A stretch of DNA of 64,000 bases from an uncultured delta proteobacterium (GTDB lineage: Bacteria > Myxococcota_A > Polyangia > Polyangiales > Polyangiaceae): NCBI GenBank assembly GCA_963763745.1, contig CAVXQJ010000016.1:385029-449028 (forward strand), written 5' to 3'. This document shows, in pieces, positions 16,877 to 50,013 of this stretch. The translations under genes were made by a program, and so were the position numbers. The notes beneath the pieces are model-generated. The model ran no database searches. It was given only the letters and a program-made list of their open reading frames with translations, and was not told the origin of the DNA. Numbering within the stretch: the first letter of the stretch is position 1; each line of letters begins with the position of its first letter.

Positions 16877-17713
16877 TTACTGACACGAAGAGCCGAGGCA
16901 CGCTGCGATCTGGCTCGAGCACTGCTGCTGGATGCAGTTGAAGTCGCCGCCGCATCCGCCGATGGCCGCGGTGATGGCGCAGTTGACGGCTTGGTCCGCG
17001 AAGTACTGCGCGTTCGCGCAACCGTCGGACAAGCAGTTCGCGACGCACGACAAACTGAACGTCGGCGGTTGCGTGTTGAGGTCGACGCATTTCAGCGCGC
17101 ACGTGAGCGTCTCGAAGCACGTGTACTGCGTCACGCACTGTCCGCAGTCCGCGGGGCAGTTCGTGCACGTCTCGTACGGCGCTTCGCACTTCTTGTTGCC
17201 GCATACCGAGCAGAGGCCGCAGTCGCCCGGACACGAGATGCAGTTCTCCGTGCCGGTGCAGAGACCGTCGCCGCAGCCGGGGCACTTGCCGCAGTCGTCG
17301 GGGCAGTTGTTGCAGCTCTCGTTGCTCTGACACGTGCCGTCGCCGCACGCGGCGCACTTGCCGCAGTCCTCGGGACAGATGGTGCAGTTCTCGATGTTCG
17401 TCTGACAGATGCCGTCGCCGCACGTCGGGCACTTGCCGCAGTCTTGCGGGCAACTGAGGCACGACTCGCTCGAGTCGCACGTGTTGTCGCCGCACGTCTT
17501 GCAAAAGCCGCAATCCTCGGGGCAGTTCGAGCACGTCTCGTTGCTGCCGCACGTGTTGTCGCCGCACGTGATCGGCGGGGGCGTGACGCCGTCGGGCAAC
17601 CCACCATCAGGGACGACGACTTGATTCGGGTCCGTCAAATCAGCGCGCGAGCCGCACGCCGAAATGGTGGCGACCACGATGGCCACGAAAGGAAGAAGAC
17701 GGCGGAGCAACAT
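16877..17713 (-). CDS. lipoprotein made of six tandem about 24-aa Cys-rich repeats (CGDGxC-x5-C-x2-CPxDCGxC), resembling the Myxococcus cysteine-rich repeat (TIGR02232 flavour)
   Basis: MLLRRLLPFVAIVVATISACGS then TCGDNTCGSNETCSNCPEDCGFCK / TCGDNTCDSSESCLSCPQDCGKC / PTCGDGICQTNIENCTICPEDCGKC / AACGDGTCQSNESCNNCPDDCGKC / PGCGDGLCTGTENCISCPGDCGLC / SVCGNKKCEAPYETCTNCPADCGQC, plus a Cys-rich C-terminal module. Confidence 0.7.
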   Translation of the reverse strand: MLLRRLLPFVAIVVATISACGSRADLTDPNQVVVPDGGLPDGVTPPPITCGDNTCGSNETCSNCPEDCGFCKTCGDNTCDSSESCLSCPQDCGKCPTCGDGICQTNIENCTICPEDCGKCAACGDGTCQSNESCNNCPDDCGKCPGCGDGLCTGTENCISCPGDCGLCSVCGNKKCEAPYETCTNCPADCGQCVTQYTCFETLTCALKCVDLNTQPPTFSLSCVANCLSDGCANAQYFADQAVNCAITAAIGGCGGDFNCIQQQCSSQIAACLGSSCQ

Positions 17714-17757: not shown

Positions 17758-18576
17758 TCAATGGCTCAAGACGAATGCCAGGGCGTTTCGCATCACCTCG
17801 TCGATGTTTGCAGAATACAAGTGTGAGGTCGCGGGCATCACGAACATTTCCGCGGGGTAACCCGTCGCCTTGAGCGCTTCGACGCTCTTCTCCTCGCCCG
17901 GGCGCTCGGTCCCGAGCTCGCCCGCTATCATCGCGACGGCGCGCACCTTCGACGTGTCGAGGTACGGTTTCTTGATCGTCACGTCGGCCTCGATGAGGAT
18001 CAAATACGGCCAGCGCCCGGGGTGGTAGCCGACGATCTCGATCGCCGCCCACCCGCCGCGCGAGTAACCGACGAGCACGGAGCCGTCGCGCGAGATGCCG
18101 CCATCGACTTTGTTTTGCGCGACCGTGATGCCGCGCTCGAGATCTTGCTCCATCAGAACGAATGACTCGTCCCACATCGGCGGCCCGATCGGCGAGGTGC
18201 AGTGCTCGTTGCCCGTCGGACAAACCATGAAGCCGCGCTCGACCCCCGCATCAAGCCACGTGCCGCACGCATAAGACGGCGCGCCGCATTGTCCGTGAAG
18301 CGTCGCGACGAGACGGTGCTCGTCCATGAGTCGCGGGAGCGCGTACCAAACGTTTCGGCCGGGAAGCATCACGGCCTCGTTCGGTCCGATCGACTCGCGC
18401 TGCGGAGGCGGCGGCGGGGGCGGGGGCGGAGACTGAGACAGAGTCGGGGACGGAGACTGAGACAGAGACGGAGACTGAGACTGAGACTGAGACGGAGACG
18501 GCGTTGGGGTCGGCGCAATCGACGCTGTCCGACAGGCAGCGAGGACGCTGGTGATCATCAAGGCGTGACGCACCAA
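17758..18576 (-). CDS. lipoprotein with an SQSPSP/poly-Pro linker and an alpha/beta-hydrolase (esterase-like, GYSRGG) domain
   Basis: Lipobox VLAAC, then PTPTPSPSQSQSQSPSLSQSPSPTLSQSPPPPPPPPP, then GxSxG-like GYSRGGWAA. Confidence 0.6.
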   Translation of the reverse strand: MVRHALMITSVLAACRTASIAPTPTPSPSQSQSQSPSLSQSPSPTLSQSPPPPPPPPPQRESIGPNEAVMLPGRNVWYALPRLMDEHRLVATLHGQCGAPSYACGTWLDAGVERGFMVCPTGNEHCTSPIGPPMWDESFVLMEQDLERGITVAQNKVDGGISRDGSVLVGYSRGGWAAIEIVGYHPGRWPYLILIEADVTIKKPYLDTSKVRAVAMIAGELGTERPGEEKSVEALKATGYPAEMFVMPATSHLYSANIDEVMRNALAFVLSH

Positions 18577-23018: not shown

Positions 23019-23679
23019 TCAGTGCTTCACGAGCGACGTGATGTGCTTTTCGAAGTGCGGGAACTCTTTCTTCGCAGCTGCGATCGCTTGCTTCGCGCTC
23101 TTCTTTGCCTTGGGCGCGTGCTTCGTCGCGAACGCGGTGAACGCGTCGTGCGGTTTGCTCGTCTCGCCGCCGTACGAGATCGCTTCGAGCGGACCTGCGC
23201 CATCGGCGAGCACCCAGAGATAATCGGCGAAGTCCTTCGCGACGACGCCGAGCTCGCCCTCCGATCCAAAAAAGACGATGGGCTGCTCGAGCAGTTCGCC
23301 ATCCTTCGTGATCCAGAACGCTGCGTAGCCGCCGGTGCCGTCTTGTCCGAACACGCGATACTCGTGCCCGGTCAGCTCTTGGTTGCCGGTCCACGCGCGA
23401 ATCCACGACGTGTTCTCGTCGGGCGCCATGAACTCTTCGTAGGGCTCGAAGTTCATCCCGTTGCCGTCGTCGTAGTCGAACGAGTGCGTGTGGAGCTCCG
23501 CGAGCACCGAAGGAAACGCGCGCGCGAACCCTTTCGGCGCCGCAGCTTTGACGGCCGCCTTCTTTGCAGGTTTGGCGACCTTCTTCTTTTTCTTCGGCGC
23601 CGCGTGCTTCGTCGTCGTCGTCTTCTTCTTCGCGGTGATCTTCTTCTTCTTCGTTCTTCTTCTTCGTCTTCTTCTTCAT
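23019..23679 (-). CDS. SUKH-1 (SMI1/KNR4) family protein, possibly with a K/A/P-rich N-terminal tail
   Basis: Core ORF 23019..23507: ...HEYRVFGQDGTGGYAAFWITKDGELLEQPIVFFGSEGELGVVAKDFADYLWVL (SMI1/KNR4 signature). Upstream in the same frame: TKKKKITAKKKTTTTKHAAPKKKKKVAKPAKKAAVKAAAPKG with no canonical start. An ATG at 23679 lies one frame off, so a 1-nt indel is implied. Confidence 0.5.
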
Positions 23680-23688
23680 GTGCTCGGT

Positions 23689-24306
23689 TTAGAGCGTGAG
23701 CACACCCGCGCGCAAGAACGCGAAGAGCGAATCGACGATGTCATCCTCCGAGTCGTCCCACCCGCGCACGACGACTTGGTTCATCACTTCCTTCAGCGCG
23801 CCGATGATGAAGATCGCCTGAAGACGCGCTTCGCCTTGGACGACGATGCCGAGCTCCTGCCCATCGACGAGGCTCTCCTCGAGGAGCGATCGGACTTGCT
23901 CGAAGAACGAATGAATCTTCCGATCGAACGCGGGGTCCACGCCGTGCGCGTCGGAGAGGAGCATCTTGGTCGTGAGCTTGTCCTCGAGGAGAAGATGAAC
24001 GATGCGCCGGATGTTCGAGCGCACTTGATCGGTCACGTCGCTCGCCACGTCGACGCGCTGAATCGCCATGCCGAAGCGCACGAGGAGCCGGTCGACGATC
24101 TCCTCGAAGATGGCGCGCTTGTCCTCGAAGTAGAGATAGAAGGTGCCGCGCGCGACGCCCGCCGCGTTGACGATGTCCTCGATTTTCGCGGCGTGATAGC
24201 CGTGCTTCGCGAAGACGTCGCGCGCCGCTTGGAGGATTTCCTGCCGCCGAGTGGCTTTGGCGCTCTCGAGGGTCTGCTGACGCTTGCGTTCGGCGGGCTG
24301 GGTCAC
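23689..24306 (-). CDS. TetR-family transcriptional regulator
   Basis: HTH ...RRQEILQAARDVFAKHGYHAAKIEDIVNAAGVARGTFYLYFEDKRAIF. GTG start at 24306 proposed; track ORF runs to the ATG at 24438 through a repeat-derived low-complexity peptide. Confidence 0.75.
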   Translation of the reverse strand: MTQPAERKRQQTLESAKATRRQEILQAARDVFAKHGYHAAKIEDIVNAAGVARGTFYLYFEDKRAIFEEIVDRLLVRFGMAIQRVDVASDVTDQVRSNIRRIVHLLLEDKLTTKMLLSDAHGVDPAFDRKIHSFFEQVRSLLEESLVDGQELGIVVQGEARLQAIFIIGALKEVMNQVVVRGWDDSEDDIVDSLFAFLRAGVLTL

Positions 24307-24310
24307 GAGG

Positions 24311-24431
24311 GCTTTGGGGGTTGGGCTTTGGGCTTTGGGGAAGAAGAAGACGAGAGGAGTGTAGCTGAACCCGCGAAAGATCCCGTCTTCTCTCCTGCCA
24401 AAGCCCGAAGCCCAAAGCCCAAACCCCACTT
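24311..24431. repeat. large inverted repeat built from tandem heptamers (GGGCTTT x4 ... 57-nt spacer ... CCAAAGC x4) in the divergent TetR/activase promoter region
   Basis: Left arm 24311-24340 gctttgggggttgggctttgggctttgggg; right arm 24398-24430 ccaaagcccgaagcccaaagcccaaaccccac (reverse complement of the left arm). Confidence 0.6.
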
Positions 24432-24509
24432 TACCCATTGCTCATCCGTGCAGCCACACGTAGCCTCCTCTCGACTGACACGTCAGTCAGTCGTCAGGGA
24501 GGTCTCGGA

Positions 24510-27500
24510 ATGGCTCAAGATCGGCCGCTCGCCATCGGAATGGACGTCGGGTCCACCACCGTCAAAGCCGTCGTCGTCGACCCCGAGACGAAGAAAATAT
24601 TGTGGAGCGACTACCAGCGCCACCACACGAAACAGCCCGAAAAAGTGGTCGAGCTGCTCGAAGCGATCTTCGCGGCGCTCCCGGACGTGCCCGTCGAGCG
24701 CTTCCGCATGTTCATGACCGGCTCCGGCGCGGCTCCGCTTTGCGAGCCGACGGGCGGGAAGTTCGTTCAAGAAGTGAACGCGGTGACGCTCGCCGTCGAG
24801 AACATGCACCCCGACGTCGGCTCCGTGATCGAGCTCGGCGGACAAGACGCGAAGATCATCATCTTCAAGTCGTCCGGCAAAAAGAAGCTCACGGTCATCC
24901 GCCACGACGGCGAGGTGCAGCACGACGACGAACAAGAAGACGACGGTGGCAAGACCGCCATCGCGTCGATGAACGACAAGTGCGCTTCCGGAACGGGCGC
25001 CACGATCGACAAGTGCTTCGTCAAAGTGAACGCGCCGCCCGAGATGGTGCTCTCGCTCGATTTCGATCCGACGAAGCTCCACCACGTCGCCGCGAAATGC
25101 GGCGTGTTCGCCGAGACCGACATCGTCAACTTGATCAAGAGCGGCATCCCCGCGCAAGAAGTCCTCTGCTCGCTCGCTGACGCCATCGTCATGCAGAACC
25201 TCAGCGTGCTCACGCGCGGCAACACGCTGAAGCACAAGGTGCTCCTGCTCGGCGGGCCGAACACGTACCTGAAATTCCTCCAGCAGTGCTGGCGCCTTCG
25301 CATTCCGCAAACGTGGCAAGAGCGCGGCCACGATTATCCGAAGGACATCCCGATCGAGGAGCTCATCTTCGTTCCGGAGAACAGCCACCTCTACGCCGCG
25401 TACGGCGCCGTCATGTACGGCCTCCACGAAGACGCGAGCGTCGGTTGGGTGAAATCGCTCGACGGCCTCAAGGACTACATCACGAACGGCCGTAAAGCTC
25501 GCCTCGGCGAGACGGCAGGTCCCCCGCTGTCCCGCACCGAAAAAGAGCTCCAAGATTTCCGCGAGCTCTACGCGATTCCCAAGTTCGAATCCGCGACGTT
25601 CGAAAAGGGCGAGGTCGTCCGCGGCGTGATCGGTTTGGACGGCGGGTCCACTTCGTCCAAAGCGGTTTTGGTCGATTACGAATCAGGAAAAATCCTCGCG
25701 AAGGGTTATCAGCTCTCGAAGGGCAATCCGATTCAAGACTCGAAGGAGCTCTTGGCGCAGCTCGAGAAGTTCGTGCACGACCAAGGCGCGACGCTCGAGG
25801 TCAAAGGCTTCGGCGCAACGGGCTACGCCGCCGACGTGCTCGAAGAGTGCGTGAAGAGCGACGTGAACATCGTCGAGACGGTCGCGCACATGATGAGCGC
25901 GGTGCACTTCTTCGGCGACGTCGACGTCATCTGCGACATCGGCGGACAAGACATCAAAGTCCTCTTCATGAAGAACGGGGACATCCAGAATTTCCGATTG
26001 TCGAACTCGTGCTCCGCGGGCAACGGCACACTCCTTCAAGCGACGGCCGATCAATTCGGCGTCAAAGTGCACGATTTCGCCGAGGTCGCGTTCAAAGCGG
26101 AGCTCGCGCCGAAGTTCTCTTACGGATGCGCCGTCTTCCTCGACACCGACCGCGTGAATTTCCAAAAAGAGGGATTCAGCAAAGAGGAGATGCTCGCGGG
26201 CCTCGCGCAAGTTCTCCCGAAGAACGTCTGGCAATACGTCGTTCAGATCCCGCGCATGGCGTCGCTCGGGCGCAAATTCGTTTTGCAGGGCGGCACGCAA
26301 TACAACCTCGCGGCCGTCAAAGCCCAAGTCGATTACATCAAAGAGCGCGTGCCCAACGCCGAAGTGTTCGTTCACCCGCACACCGGCGAAGCGGGCGCGA
26401 TCGGCGCGGCGATGGAAACGCTCCGCGTCGTCAAACGCAAAGGCCAGAGCTCGTTCATCGGCATTCGCGCCGCGATCGATCTCGAATACACGACGAAGAA
26501 CGACGACGAGACGGTCTGCCACTTCTGTCCGAACGAGTGCAAGCGCACGTTCATCGACACGCGCCGCCCCGACGGCTCCACCTCGCGCTACATCGCGGGG
26601 TTCTCGTGCGAGAAGGGCACCGTCGAATCCAAAGAAGCGATGCTCTCGCTCGTCGCCGAGCGGAAGAAGATCGCGCAGCAATATCCGAACATGGTCTCGT
26701 ACGAGGCCCTCAAGGCATTCTCGCACTTCTACAAATTCATCCCGATGCCCGAAGACGGCGCGCCCATCGACGACGTCGAGGTGCGCAAAGGAATCTTCGG
26801 CGTACGCCGCGTGCCGATCAAGCGCCCGTTCAAGCGCTCGTCCAAAGAAGCGTGGGAGAAGCGCCGCAGCATTCGCATCGGCATCCCGCGCGTCTTGAAT
26901 TTGTATTCGACGGGTCCGTTCTTCCGCACGTACTTCGAAGCGCTCGGCATGCAGAAGCAGAACGTCGTCTTCTCGGACGAGACGACGGAAGAATTGTGGC
27001 TCGCCGGCGGCAAATACGGATCGATCGACCCGTGCTTCCCGAGCAAGGTCGCGCAAGCGCACGTTCACAACTTGCTCTTCGCGCAACACACCGAGAAGAA
27101 GCCGCTCAAGTACATCTTCTTCCCGATCCTCACGCACGTTCCGAACTTCGTCGCCGACACGATGGACAACACCGCGTGTCCGATCGTCGCGGGCGCACCG
27201 GACGTGATGAAGGCCGCGTTCACCAAAGAGGTCGACTTCTTCGCGTCGCGCGGCATCGAATATCTCGATCCCGCGATCTCCTTCTCGGAGCTCTCGCTCA
27301 CGGCGCGTCGCCTCTTCGACACGTTCAAGGCTCGATTGGGCATCACCGAGGACGAAAACGATCACGCCGTCGCTGAAGCGATCAAAGCGCTCGATTTCTT
27401 CGACAAGGACGTCCAAGAAAAAGGTCGCGCGATCCTCGAGACCGTCGAAGCGGAAGACCGCGTCGCGATTCTCATGATCGGCCGCCCGTATCACTCGGAC

Positions 27501-28220
27501 CCTGGGTTGAACCATGGCATCCCCGAGGAGTTCCAAGTCCTCGGTTATCCCATCTTGAGCATTCGCTCGATCCCGAAGGATCGCGAATACCTCGATCGCT
27601 ATTACAAAGAGGAGCTCGACGCAGGCACCATCAAGACGCCACTCGAGCTCAATCACGTTTGGCCGGAGAACTATTCTGCGAACAGCGCGCAGAAGGTTTG
27701 GGCCGTCGGGTTCGCGGCGCACCATCCGAACGTCGTCTTGCTCGACCTCTCGAGCTTCAAGTGCGGTCACGACGCGCCGACATATGGCCTCGTCGATTCG
27801 ATCGTGTCGGCGAGCAAAACGCCTTACGCCGCTCTCCACGACATCGACGCGAACAAACCGAGCGGCTCGATCAAGATCCGCGTGAGGACATACGTCCACG
27901 CGCTGAAGCTCCACGAAGAGCGTTTGTCGGATCACTCGAAGCGAAAGCGCGATCTCGAGCACGCGATCGACAAGAAGCGACTCGAGCTCCTCGAAATGCG
28001 CAAAGACCAGCTCGCCGCGCGGCGCGTCCAAGACGCGGCGATCGTCGCGCAAATCGAAGCGCTGCGCGTGAAGGTCGCGGCGTACGAAGCGCCGCCCGCT
28101 CCGCCGCCGGAGCCACCGAAGGGACTCATGCAACTAGGCAAGAAGAGCAAGGACGGCACGATCGTACGCGTGGCCGCTCCGCAAAATGACGTGATGGAAT
28201 TCGCACAGGAAGGCGAGTGA
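24510..28220 (+). CDS. acyl-CoA dehydratase activase-related protein: two BadF/BadG/BcrA/BcrD (HgdC-like) ATPase domains fused to a DUF2229 domain, plus a C-terminal coiled coil
   Basis: MDVGSTTVKAVVVD... and GLDGGSTSSKAVLVD... ASKHA activase cores; middle/C region of DUF2229 type; GGGAGG SD 8 nt upstream of ATG 24510. Confidence 0.85.
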   Translation: MAQDRPLAIGMDVGSTTVKAVVVDPETKKILWSDYQRHHTKQPEKVVELLEAIFAALPDVPVERFRMFMTGSGAAPLCEPTGGKFVQEVNAVTLAVENMHPDVGSVIELGGQDAKIIIFKSSGKKKLTVIRHDGEVQHDDEQEDDGGKTAIASMNDKCASGTGATIDKCFVKVNAPPEMVLSLDFDPTKLHHVAAKCGVFAETDIVNLIKSGIPAQEVLCSLADAIVMQNLSVLTRGNTLKHKVLLLGGPNTYLKFLQQCWRLRIPQTWQERGHDYPKDIPIEELIFVPENSHLYAAYGAVMYGLHEDASVGWVKSLDGLKDYITNGRKARLGETAGPPLSRTEKELQDFRELYAIPKFESATFEKGEVVRGVIGLDGGSTSSKAVLVDYESGKILAKGYQLSKGNPIQDSKELLAQLEKFVHDQGATLEVKGFGATGYAADVLEECVKSDVNIVETVAHMMSAVHFFGDVDVICDIGGQDIKVLFMKNGDIQNFRLSNSCSAGNGTLLQATADQFGVKVHDFAEVAFKAELAPKFSYGCAVFLDTDRVNFQKEGFSKEEMLAGLAQVLPKNVWQYVVQIPRMASLGRKFVLQGGTQYNLAAVKAQVDYIKERVPNAEVFVHPHTGEAGAIGAAMETLRVVKRKGQSSFIGIRAAIDLEYTTKNDDETVCHFCPNECKRTFIDTRRPDGSTSRYIAGFSCEKGTVESKEAMLSLVAERKKIAQQYPNMVSYEALKAFSHFYKFIPMPEDGAPIDDVEVRKGIFGVRRVPIKRPFKRSSKEAWEKRRSIRIGIPRVLNLYSTGPFFRTYFEALGMQKQNVVFSDETTEELWLAGGKYGSIDPCFPSKVAQAHVHNLLFAQHTEKKPLKYIFFPILTHVPNFVADTMDNTACPIVAGAPDVMKAAFTKEVDFFASRGIEYLDPAISFSELSLTARRLFDTFKARLGITEDENDHAVAEAIKALDFFDKDVQEKGRAILETVEAEDRVAILMIGRPYHSDPGLNHGIPEEFQVLGYPILSIRSIPKDREYLDRYYKEELDAGTIKTPLELNHVWPENYSANSAQKVWAVGFAAHHPNVVLLDLSSFKCGHDAPTYGLVDSIVSASKTPYAALHDIDANKPSGSIKIRVRTYVHALKLHEERLSDHSKRKRDLEHAIDKKRLELLEMRKDQLAARRVQDAAIVAQIEALRVKVAAYEAPPAPPPEPPKGLMQLGKKSKDGTIVRVAAPQNDVMEFAQEGE

Positions 28221-49324: not shown

Positions 49325-50013
49325 TTCGCCGTCTCCGTCCCCGACTCCGTCTCTGTCTCCGACTCCGTCCCCGACTCCGCCCCCGTCTCCGTCTCCGTCT
49401 CCGTCTCCGTCTTCGTCACCGTCGCCGCGATTCGCACCGGCTCCGCAACACGCACGTGCCCTTGCACTGCGAGCGCGGCTTCGACGTCCGCCTCCGCGAT
49501 GTGCAGCCCGGCGGCGATCTCCGCAGGCGTTTTGTCCTTCGCGACGAGCGCCTCGATCGCGGATTCGTACGCGCGCTCCACCGCGCCGCGCAGTCGCTTG
49601 CGCTCCGTCGCCGCGCGACGCGACGCGCGCGACGCGAGAAGCGCGAGGACGACGCCCGACGCGATCAGCACGCCTGCGATGACGAAGCTCACCGGCGCGA
49701 GCATGATCGCGAGCAAGAGAAGCCCGCCTGCGGGGACCCCGAGCGCGTACGTCATGAGCTTTTGCATCGCCGCCGTGCGCTGAGCGTTCGACGCTTCGCG
49801 CAGCGCGACGGCGGACTCTTCCGGAAGCGGCGCGCTCTCCGGCATCACGACGCGCGGCGCGCCACATACCGCGCACACCCAGCGGAGATCCGGATCGGGC
49901 AGCGTCTTCGCGAACGCGCCACACGCGGGACAGCGCGCGCTCTCGCCGTATAGCTTCGTGAGGTTCTCCTCGCCGGGCGACGGCGCGAACGCCCCCGGTT
50001 GAGTGGGAAGCAT
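49321..50013 (-). CDS. zinc-ribbon membrane protein with a C-terminal (TE)n repeat tail
   Basis: CPACG...CAVCG ribbon, one TM, C-terminal TKTETETETETGAESGTESETETESGTETAK. Its stop overlaps the methyltransferase ATG (ATGA). Confidence 0.55.
   Translation of the reverse strand: MLPTQPGAFAPSPGEENLTKLYGESARCPACGAFAKTLPDPDLRWVCAVCGAPRVVMPESAPLPEESAVALREASNAQRTAAMQKLMTYALGVPAGGLLLLAIMLAPVSFVIAGVLIASGVVLALLASRASRRAATERKRLRGAVERAYESAIEALVAKDKTPAEIAAGLHIAEADVEAALAVQGHVRVAEPVRIAATVTKTETETETETGAESGTESETETESGTETAK

Follow-up and report, generated by a model that had tools for sequence, protein, structure and literature searches.

The long inverted repeat that lies between the divergent tetR and activase-type genes in the 64-kb stretch of DNA analysed here (the window) is probably a copy, specific to this lineage, of a simple-sequence hairpin built from G-rich heptamers; it has replaced approximately 30 bp of ancestral sequence and does not appear to be the operator of the TetR regulator. 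Its origin is most likely that of a structural repeat, neutral or selfish, and not that of a regulator site.

The element is set between a TetR-type gene on the minus strand and an activase-type gene on the plus strand, and Pfam confirmed both genes and thus the divergent setting given in the preliminary description. The features of the two genes are as follows:

23689-24306, minus strand: tetR coding sequence, 205 aa, start codon GTG at 24306 (Pfam TetR_N, PF00440, 1.7e-17; N-termini of homologues; GC3 0.85)
24307-24438, minus strand: spurious N-terminal extension of tetR, MGKVGFGLWASGFG...PKAL (no homologue has the extension; codon-position GC)
24510-28220, plus strand: activase-type gene with two BcrAD_BadFG domains and DUF2229, 1236 aa (Pfam; divergent pairing with tetR kept in orthologues)
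24497-24502, plus strand: activase Shine-Dalgarno sequence GGGAGG, 7 nt before the ATG at 24510 (read from the sequence)

At its annotated length the TetR open reading frame (23689-24438) encodes 249 aa, and a protein search with it gave 1248 relatives. The closest of these, from Polyangiaceae MAGs and soil metagenomes, are 83-91 % identical, 203-207 aa long and cover 82 % of the 249-aa query. Their N-termini (VTQPAERKRQ or MAEPAERKRQ) align with the window GTG at 24306, and because the 203-207 aa homologues share that N-terminus, this GTG is taken as the tetR start. An extension resembling MGKVGFGLWASGFG occurs in none of the TetR homologues, and the GC content by codon position is 0.52/0.52/0.66 in the 44 codons of the extension compared to 0.69/0.34/0.85 in the tetR core. 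The earlier proposal that the extension beginning GFGLWASGFG is non-coding was thus borne out, both by the start of the homologues at GTG 24306 and by the third-position GC content (0.66 compared to 0.85); judged from these comparisons, the extension is the hairpin in translation. The 249-aa TetR call should consequently be cut to 205 aa. The tetR gene of the window is intact. Relaxed selection on it was considered and rejected, as it carries two private substitutions at otherwise invariant columns and the other sequences carry 0-4. Exact-sequence look-ups with the TetR and activase proteins of the window matched no record.

The element itself is composed of an outer pair of heptamer arrays and an inner stem and loop:

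24299-24437, no strand assigned: whole imperfect palindrome (inverted-repeat search, MFE, absence from orthologous loci)
24309-24339, plus strand: G-rich arm, GGGCTTT in 4.4 copies, including five tracts of three or more G (Tandem Repeats Finder)
24340-24355, no strand assigned: left half of the inner stem, GAAGAAGAAGACGAGA (inverted-repeat search and fold)
24356-24380, no strand assigned: hairpin loop, GGAGTGTAGCTGAACCCGCGAAAGA (inverted-repeat search and folds)
24381-24397, no strand assigned: right half of the inner stem, TCCCGTCTTCTCTCCTG (inverted-repeat search and fold)
24398-24428, plus strand: C-rich arm, CCAAAGC in 4.4 copies, G-rich on the minus strand, where it has four tracts of three or more G (Tandem Repeats Finder)

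Tandem Repeats Finder delimited the left array as GGGCTTT with period 7 (4.4 copies, 83 % matches, 24309-24339) and the right array as CCAAAGC with period 7 (4.4 copies, 87 % matches, 24398-24428). The units of the left arm, preceded by gag, read GGGCTTT GGGGGTT GGGCTTT GGGCTTT GGGG, and those of the right arm CCAAAGC CCGAAGC CCAAAGC CCAAACC CCA or, in an alternative phasing, CC AAAGCCC GAAGCCC AAAGCCC AAACCCC A. The variant unit is compensated between the arms, GGGGGTT standing opposite AAACCCC. In the preliminary description four GGGCTTT units faced four CCAAAGC units across a 57-nt spacer, with arms of approximately 30 nt. The arrays are real, with about 4.4 units each, but the coordinates were about 2 nt off, only five of the eight units across both arms are perfect and the core separating the arrays measures 58 nt. 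The arm length of ~30 nt holds for the heptamer arrays, but these are the outer portion of a larger imperfect palindrome (24299-24355 and 24381-24437) which was found by inverted-repeat search and has 57-nt arms of 75 % complementarity, a 25-nt loop and a total length of 139 bp. The heptamer portions of the arms are 87-92 % complementary, and the G-rich arm is the 5' one on either strand. With the unit 17-mer and at most three mismatches, six matches were found in the 64-kb window, all within the two arms, compared to 0.10 predicted from shuffles. No second copy of the element and no comparable long inverted repeat was present within the window.

The hairpin potential claimed earlier was confirmed by folding. 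The RNA fold of 24290-24445 had an energy of -79.3 kcal/mol on the plus strand (z -6.0; 0 of 200 shuffles as stable) and -79.2 kcal/mol on the minus strand (z -5.4; again no shuffle as stable), and the predicted fold on each strand is a near-continuous helix of ~50 bp. Cruciform extrusion is presumably unlikely, given the 25-nt loop and the imperfect stem. When the region was searched against Rfam at E values up to 1, only sub-threshold miRNA-precursor models were hit and nothing reached the gathering score; these matches reflect the generic hairpin shape. An intrinsic terminator was rejected, since there are no terminator-like sites in 24200-24600 and the element sits between two gene starts. 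The left arm is a G-quadruplex-type motif on the plus strand, which is the tetR template strand (G4Hunter-style score 1.88; G3+N1-7 x4 motif at 24295-24320), and the right arm scores 1.39 on the minus strand, with a G4 motif at 24411-24436. Both arms keep at least four G-tracts, and together they supply two of the five canonical G4 motifs of the whole 64-kb window.

The window also contains repeats of other kinds. A low-complexity tract rich in TCT and TCTTCGTCG, with arrays of period 3, 9, 13 and 18, is located just past the tetR stop codon (23585-23677), between tetR and a SUKH-like gene at 23019-23507. Further tandem repeats are CCGTCT in 16.5 copies (49329-49427), a 24-mer in 3.4 copies (18421-18501), a 22-mer in 2.1 copies, 96 % identical and containing GACCAGACTTGGTC (34825-34872), and two arrays of a 72-nt repeat (17265-17569), which probably encode Cys-rich protein repeats.

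The loci of the closest TetR homologues (L001, L002, L003/L004, L005 and L125) and one more distant locus (L122) were compared with the window. The same activase gene lies divergent to tetR in all of the closest loci. The activase/tetR intergenic region is 103-133 nt long in L001, L002, L003/L004 and L005, compared to 203 nt in the window, and in alignment A1 the entire heptamer palindrome corresponds to a gap in all four orthologues. In L125 the intergenic region has 181 nt, the additional length being between the operator palindrome described below and the activase start; no element or inverted repeat was found at this locus, nor in the more distant L122. Across nine loci of TetR homologues, 5.6 kb each, there were no GGGCTTT arrays. 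As the element is absent from all compared orthologues, parsimony indicates that it was gained in the lineage of the window, i.e. that it arose or inserted only there. Two further loci differ in other ways. L122, from a 7-Mb genome with a TetR 77 % identical to that of the window, has a 290-nt intergenic region in which an extra palindrome, CTGACGCCGGCGTCAG (L122:2405-2432), stands beside the conserved GACTGACGTGTCAGTC and may be a second operator. On the orthologous long-read contig L123 (1-2500) the activase was called in pieces of 437 and 718 aa, with an 800-nt 'Laminin_G_3' open reading frame called between activase and tetR, likely due to frameshift errors or rearrangement, and this locus was left out of the comparison.

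Approximately 10 nt before the GTG or ATG of tetR, in a zone ~10-35 nt upstream of it, the orthologues L001-L005 and L125 share TAAAAAA(G)CTGGTAnTnTGCA, i.e. an A-tract and a motif, and in none of them is there a Shine-Dalgarno sequence before the tetR start. This arrangement suggests an extended -10 element for a near-leaderless tetR mRNA. The A-tract and CTGGTAnTnTGCA segment is missing in the window, where ~30 bp of ancestral sequence has been replaced by the element. A local alignment of the ancestral 60-nt segment with the 132-nt window segment was at shuffle level. The MAFFT alignment had hinted that the loop could be a relic of the ancestral tetR promoter, an idea which was rejected, because the local alignments did not exceed that level. 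Since ancestral bases were lost and not merely interrupted, the element is not a clean insertion. No direct repeat that could represent a target-site duplication was found at either candidate boundary of the element. Its mode of origin may be either insertion or growth in situ.

On the activase side of the element the intergenic region is conserved, and three regulatory features were assigned there:

24438-24443, plus strand: putative activase -35, TTGCTC, directly abutting the element (TTGC invariant in alignment A1)
24461-24466, plus strand: putative activase -10, TAGCCT, 17 nt after the -35 (T-A-n-C-n-T columns invariant in alignment A1)
24473-24488, no strand assigned: predicted TetR operator, palindrome GACTGAC-AC-GTCAGTC (7+2+7), within the invariant block TGACTGACGTGTCAGTC

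The 17-column block TGACTGACGTGTCAGTC is the sole invariant block in a seven-sequence alignment that includes the window and has a mean column identity of 45 %. It is located just downstream of the putative activase -10, and 9 nt separate it from the GGGAGG Shine-Dalgarno sequence that follows. The palindrome within it has a single copy in the window and is 45 bases from the heptamer repeat. TetR-family operators are palindromes of roughly 15-20 bp. The 16-bp palindrome at 24473-24488 fits this size and the 139-bp heptamer palindrome does not, although the latter resembles such operators in being located in a divergent tetR/target intergenic region. In the orthologous intergenic regions (L001, L002, L003/L004, L005 and L125) the palindrome at 24473-24488 is conserved, whereas the heptamer element is not. 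A consensus promoter scan gave no sigma-70-type site at its threshold in the window and no sites in L001, where the CTGGTAnTnTGCA motif was not called either; the promoter assignments are therefore based purely on conservation. If the hexamers are correctly placed, the layout of block and hexamers is that of a classic TetR operator overlapping the transcription start of its target. It is most probable from the conserved sequence that TetR binds at 24473-24488, across the presumed activase transcription start. For annotation, the operator would be placed at this position and the large palindrome would not be marked as a regulator site.

Hairpins of the same build were found elsewhere. The pattern GGGCTTTGGG-N50-80-CCCAAAGCCC was scanned over one genome per species and matched at least 115 loci, compared to a chance expectation of ~20-30 by our own estimate; the matches listed do not visibly include the source genome of the window. 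Among the 116 matches listed, 56 had at least three units on both arms, 23 had two units and 37 were unrelated hairpins or coding sequence. The preliminary description had asked for other GGGCTTT arrays: there are none elsewhere in the 64-kb window, but at least 56 hairpins of this build in other genomes. The hosts of the 56 hairpins belong to Acidobacteriota, Gemmatimonadota, Myxococcota (Kofleriaceae), Planctomycetota, Alphaproteobacteria and others. Four units is the modal arm (31 of 56 and 34 of 56 for the two arms), and the unit number ranges from 3 to 10 between copies. At least 25 matches came from a single Kofleriaceae MAG, DASXCY01 (SMAG_U5072; loci L010, L016, L019-L021, L026, L028, L034, L036, L047, L049, L052, L069, L074, L077, L078, L080, L099, L105, L106, L109 and L113). 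Most of the heptamer-built copies in DASXCY01 share the inner stem GGCCAGA/TCTGGCC and have very different loops, like a REP-type family within one genome. The inner stem of the window element differs from this Kofleriaceae stem, and no consensus beyond the heptamer was common to the hairpins of different genomes.

Among the matches listed, a gene 3' end faces the hairpin in 37 of 56 cases, and in 27 of 56 the stop codon is -2 to +8 nt from the first unit. The open reading frame context was classified with a GC1 > GC2 filter, which is reliable for a gene 3' end abutting the hairpin and not for 5' ends. Where just one side of a hairpin has a gene 3' end (28 hairpins), the adjacent stop codon was TAG in 17, TGA in 9 and TAA in 2; on these raw counts TAG looks enriched for GC-rich genomes. 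The TAG stop often overlaps the first unit (TAGGCTTTGGGC...), as in L014:6338-6423, L018:4300-4398 and L072:1178-1276 (from loci L006-L120). In the same 28 hairpins there was no sense-strand bias in RNA folding energy with respect to the upstream gene (11 compared to 17, p = 0.10). An Rfam search of 18 class loci gave tRNAs only. Scans of viral contigs with the hairpin pattern gave 0 and 1 matches for the two arm orders, which argues against a phage link. A metagenome scan with the 20-mer that spans the junction of arm and inner stem, GGCTTTGGGGAAGAAGAAGA, found no other hairpin among the 40 matches listed. All 40 (L126-L165) are antisense to a peroxiredoxin-like coding motif, ...FFFPKA..., which is widely conserved; that the spurious TetR extension contains this peptide too (LVFFFPKAQSP) is coincidental. 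A literature search did not find GGGCTTTGGGCTTT in a bacterial context.

The closest described systems are the G-rich heptameric repeats of Xanthomonas (GGGAATC) and Nostoc PCC 7120 (GGGGA(C/T)T) (Rehm et al. 2015, PLoS One, PMC4692102). Each genome contains ~185 arrays, the majority with four units, and 89-93 % of them are intergenic; the arrays lie very near to the upstream stop codon or overlap it. Convergent pairs capable of forming a stem-loop number 70-75 per genome, and only 7-8 % of the arrays are between divergent ORFs (Rehm et al. 2015). The G-rich strand is the non-coding strand upstream of genes and the coding strand downstream of them, and the arrays are not kept at the same loci between related species. 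G4 formation was demonstrated in vitro, but no function or regulatory role was identified, and there was no association of the repeats with IS or transposable elements (Rehm et al. 2015).

The window element has the main features of this class. Its arms are tandem heptamers with G3-4 tracts, well above the two units and 14 bp that delimit the class (period 7, 4.4 copies per arm), each arm has four units, with five G-tracts in the plus-strand arm and four in the minus-strand arm, and the two arrays lie close together and convergent on opposite strands. The element is intergenic near an ORF boundary on both sides, with the G-rich strand non-coding upstream of each gene: one array starts at a distance of 2 nt from the start codon of tetR, with its G-arm on the tetR template strand, and the G-rich strand of the other arm is the template strand of the activase gene. 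The likeness therefore extends to a heptamer built from a tract of three or four G and 3-4 other bases, the preference for four units, the intergenic location, the inverted pairing on opposite strands, the lack of conservation at a locus and the potential for G-quadruplexes, which in the window consists of motif scores only. The differences are in the unit, GGGCTTT, in the host, a member of the Polyangiaceae, and in the position between divergent genes, which is atypical for the class. The relatives of the GGGCTTT type, unlike the Xanthomonas and Nostoc repeats, have hosts in Acidobacteriota, Gemmatimonadota, Kofleriaceae and Planctomycetota. The Xanthomonas and Nostoc repeats have many copies per genome, and the window element is one copy in the 64 kb of its genome that were analysed. 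By analogy, we file the element as another member of these G-rich heptamer repeats, with a different unit and host and in a position atypical for them.

Other known repeats are less similar. Three tandemly repeated heptanucleotides are present in Calothrix PCC 7601, according to earlier work as cited by Rehm et al. (2015), and the TAACTGA repeats of Beggiatoaceae are almost all direct; of 170 sets in the BOGUAY genome, one is inverted (PMC4679880). These share with the window element the tandem intergenic arrays of heptanucleotides, the phylogenetically scattered hosts and the lack of a known spreading mechanism; they differ in being mostly just upstream of start codons and in not being based on G-tracts. 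REP/REPIN, ERIC and Correia-type repeats are short to medium imperfect palindromes, dispersed and often at gene 3' ends, which form RNA hairpins when transcribed and can disrupt or create promoters. They have a fixed consensus (and REPs a RAYT partner), and their arms are not simple-sequence units of variable number.

The element had been proposed to be an oversized operator, i.e. that the heptamer arms form a large repeat-structured site for TetR or another multimeric regulator of both divergent promoters. We consider this very improbable. The element does lie in the divergent control region, and an arm of four units might in principle accommodate a multimer. However, five orthologous intergenic regions are without it, although the TetR proteins are 83-91 % identical and the gene pair is conserved, and its absence where regulator and target are otherwise kept makes the heptamer palindrome a very unlikely operator. 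The invariant 17-bp block offers TetR a canonical conserved palindrome, and across many phyla hairpins of the same type adjoin genes of unrelated kinds, mostly following a stop codon. The dispersal of this build in other genomes, with at least 25 matches in one Kofleriaceae MAG, likewise disfavours the operator. The preliminary description had itself named binding of TetR elsewhere, together with a generic REP/MITE-like repeat, as the outcome that would speak against its proposal, and the comparative evidence points that way. Whether the element was transposed into the promoter as a mobile MITE or REP/REPIN-like element is a separate matter. A lineage-specific segment of ~130 bp with long inverted arms would suit such an origin, as would the multiple copies of related hairpins per genome and the conserved inner stem with variable loop in Kofleriaceae SMAG_U5072. 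Nevertheless, we find transposition unlikely: there is no flanking target-site duplication, the ~30 bp of ancestral sequence is missing and not simply interrupted, and the 40 metagenome matches listed include no further copy with this junction. Simple-sequence arms that vary from 3 to 10 units between copies fit slippage better than cut-and-paste, and the analogous repeats are not associated with IS or transposable elements (PMC4692102).

The remaining alternative is that the structure was recruited in cis to control tetR, as an RNase III site in the 5'-UTR or as a G-quadruplex or hairpin switch. Between the end of the helix and the tetR GTG there are 3 nt, both arms have at least four intact G-tracts, and tetR is intact even though its ancestral upstream motif is gone, all of which could be expected of a recruited structure. 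But the element is conserved in no relative, both of its strands fold equally well, and the class shows no sense-strand bias (11 compared to 17, p = 0.10). Rfam gave no family beyond spurious sub-threshold miRNA-hairpin matches, and no regulatory role could be identified for the analogous repeats (PMC4692102), so that we see little chance of recruitment. If it had occurred, the repressor level, and hence the activase operon, would be responsive to temperature, ions or helicases. The preferred reading of the element is the lineage-specific heptamer hairpin.

The hairpin may have originated as arrays that grew by slippage, one arm being copied from the other. It is flanked by the putative activase -35 and the start codon of tetR and stands in place of ~30 bp. 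With the ancestral A-tract and CTGGTAnTnTGCA lost, tetR would need a substitute promoter, located at the element or within it. If transcription begins upstream of the element, the tetR mRNA would gain a 5' leader of ~130 nt, which would fold into a ~50-bp helix that stops 3 nt short of the GTG, without a Shine-Dalgarno sequence. Such a helix is expected to lower or alter TetR synthesis, or to invite cleavage by RNase III. The A/T tract upstream of the putative activase -35 would also have been lost. We infer such effects on the expression of tetR or the activase gene from the altered layout of the region.

A much bolder view, to which we give a low probability, is that the GGGCTTT-type hairpins of the different phyla belong to a family, not described before, of G4/hairpin elements which propagate themselves and home to ORF boundaries; one copy would then have replaced a near-leaderless tetR promoter, leading to structure-gated repressor synthesis and a rewired activase operon. 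The frequent overlap with TAG stop codons would fit homing to ORF boundaries. Gating by structure would in that case mean unwinding or RNase III processing of the ~50-bp helix, or a G4.

The locus provides a natural experiment, in which the element displaced a conserved promoter motif and relatives without the element allow the expression to be compared. The wider GGGCTTT class and its association with stop codons are a more interesting by-product than the locus itself. Four-unit, G-first heptamer hairpins occur outside Xanthomonas and Nostoc as well, and soil and groundwater members of the Acidobacteriota, Gemmatimonadota, Myxococcota and Planctomycetota carry a dispersed GGGCTTT version, which usually touches a stop codon.
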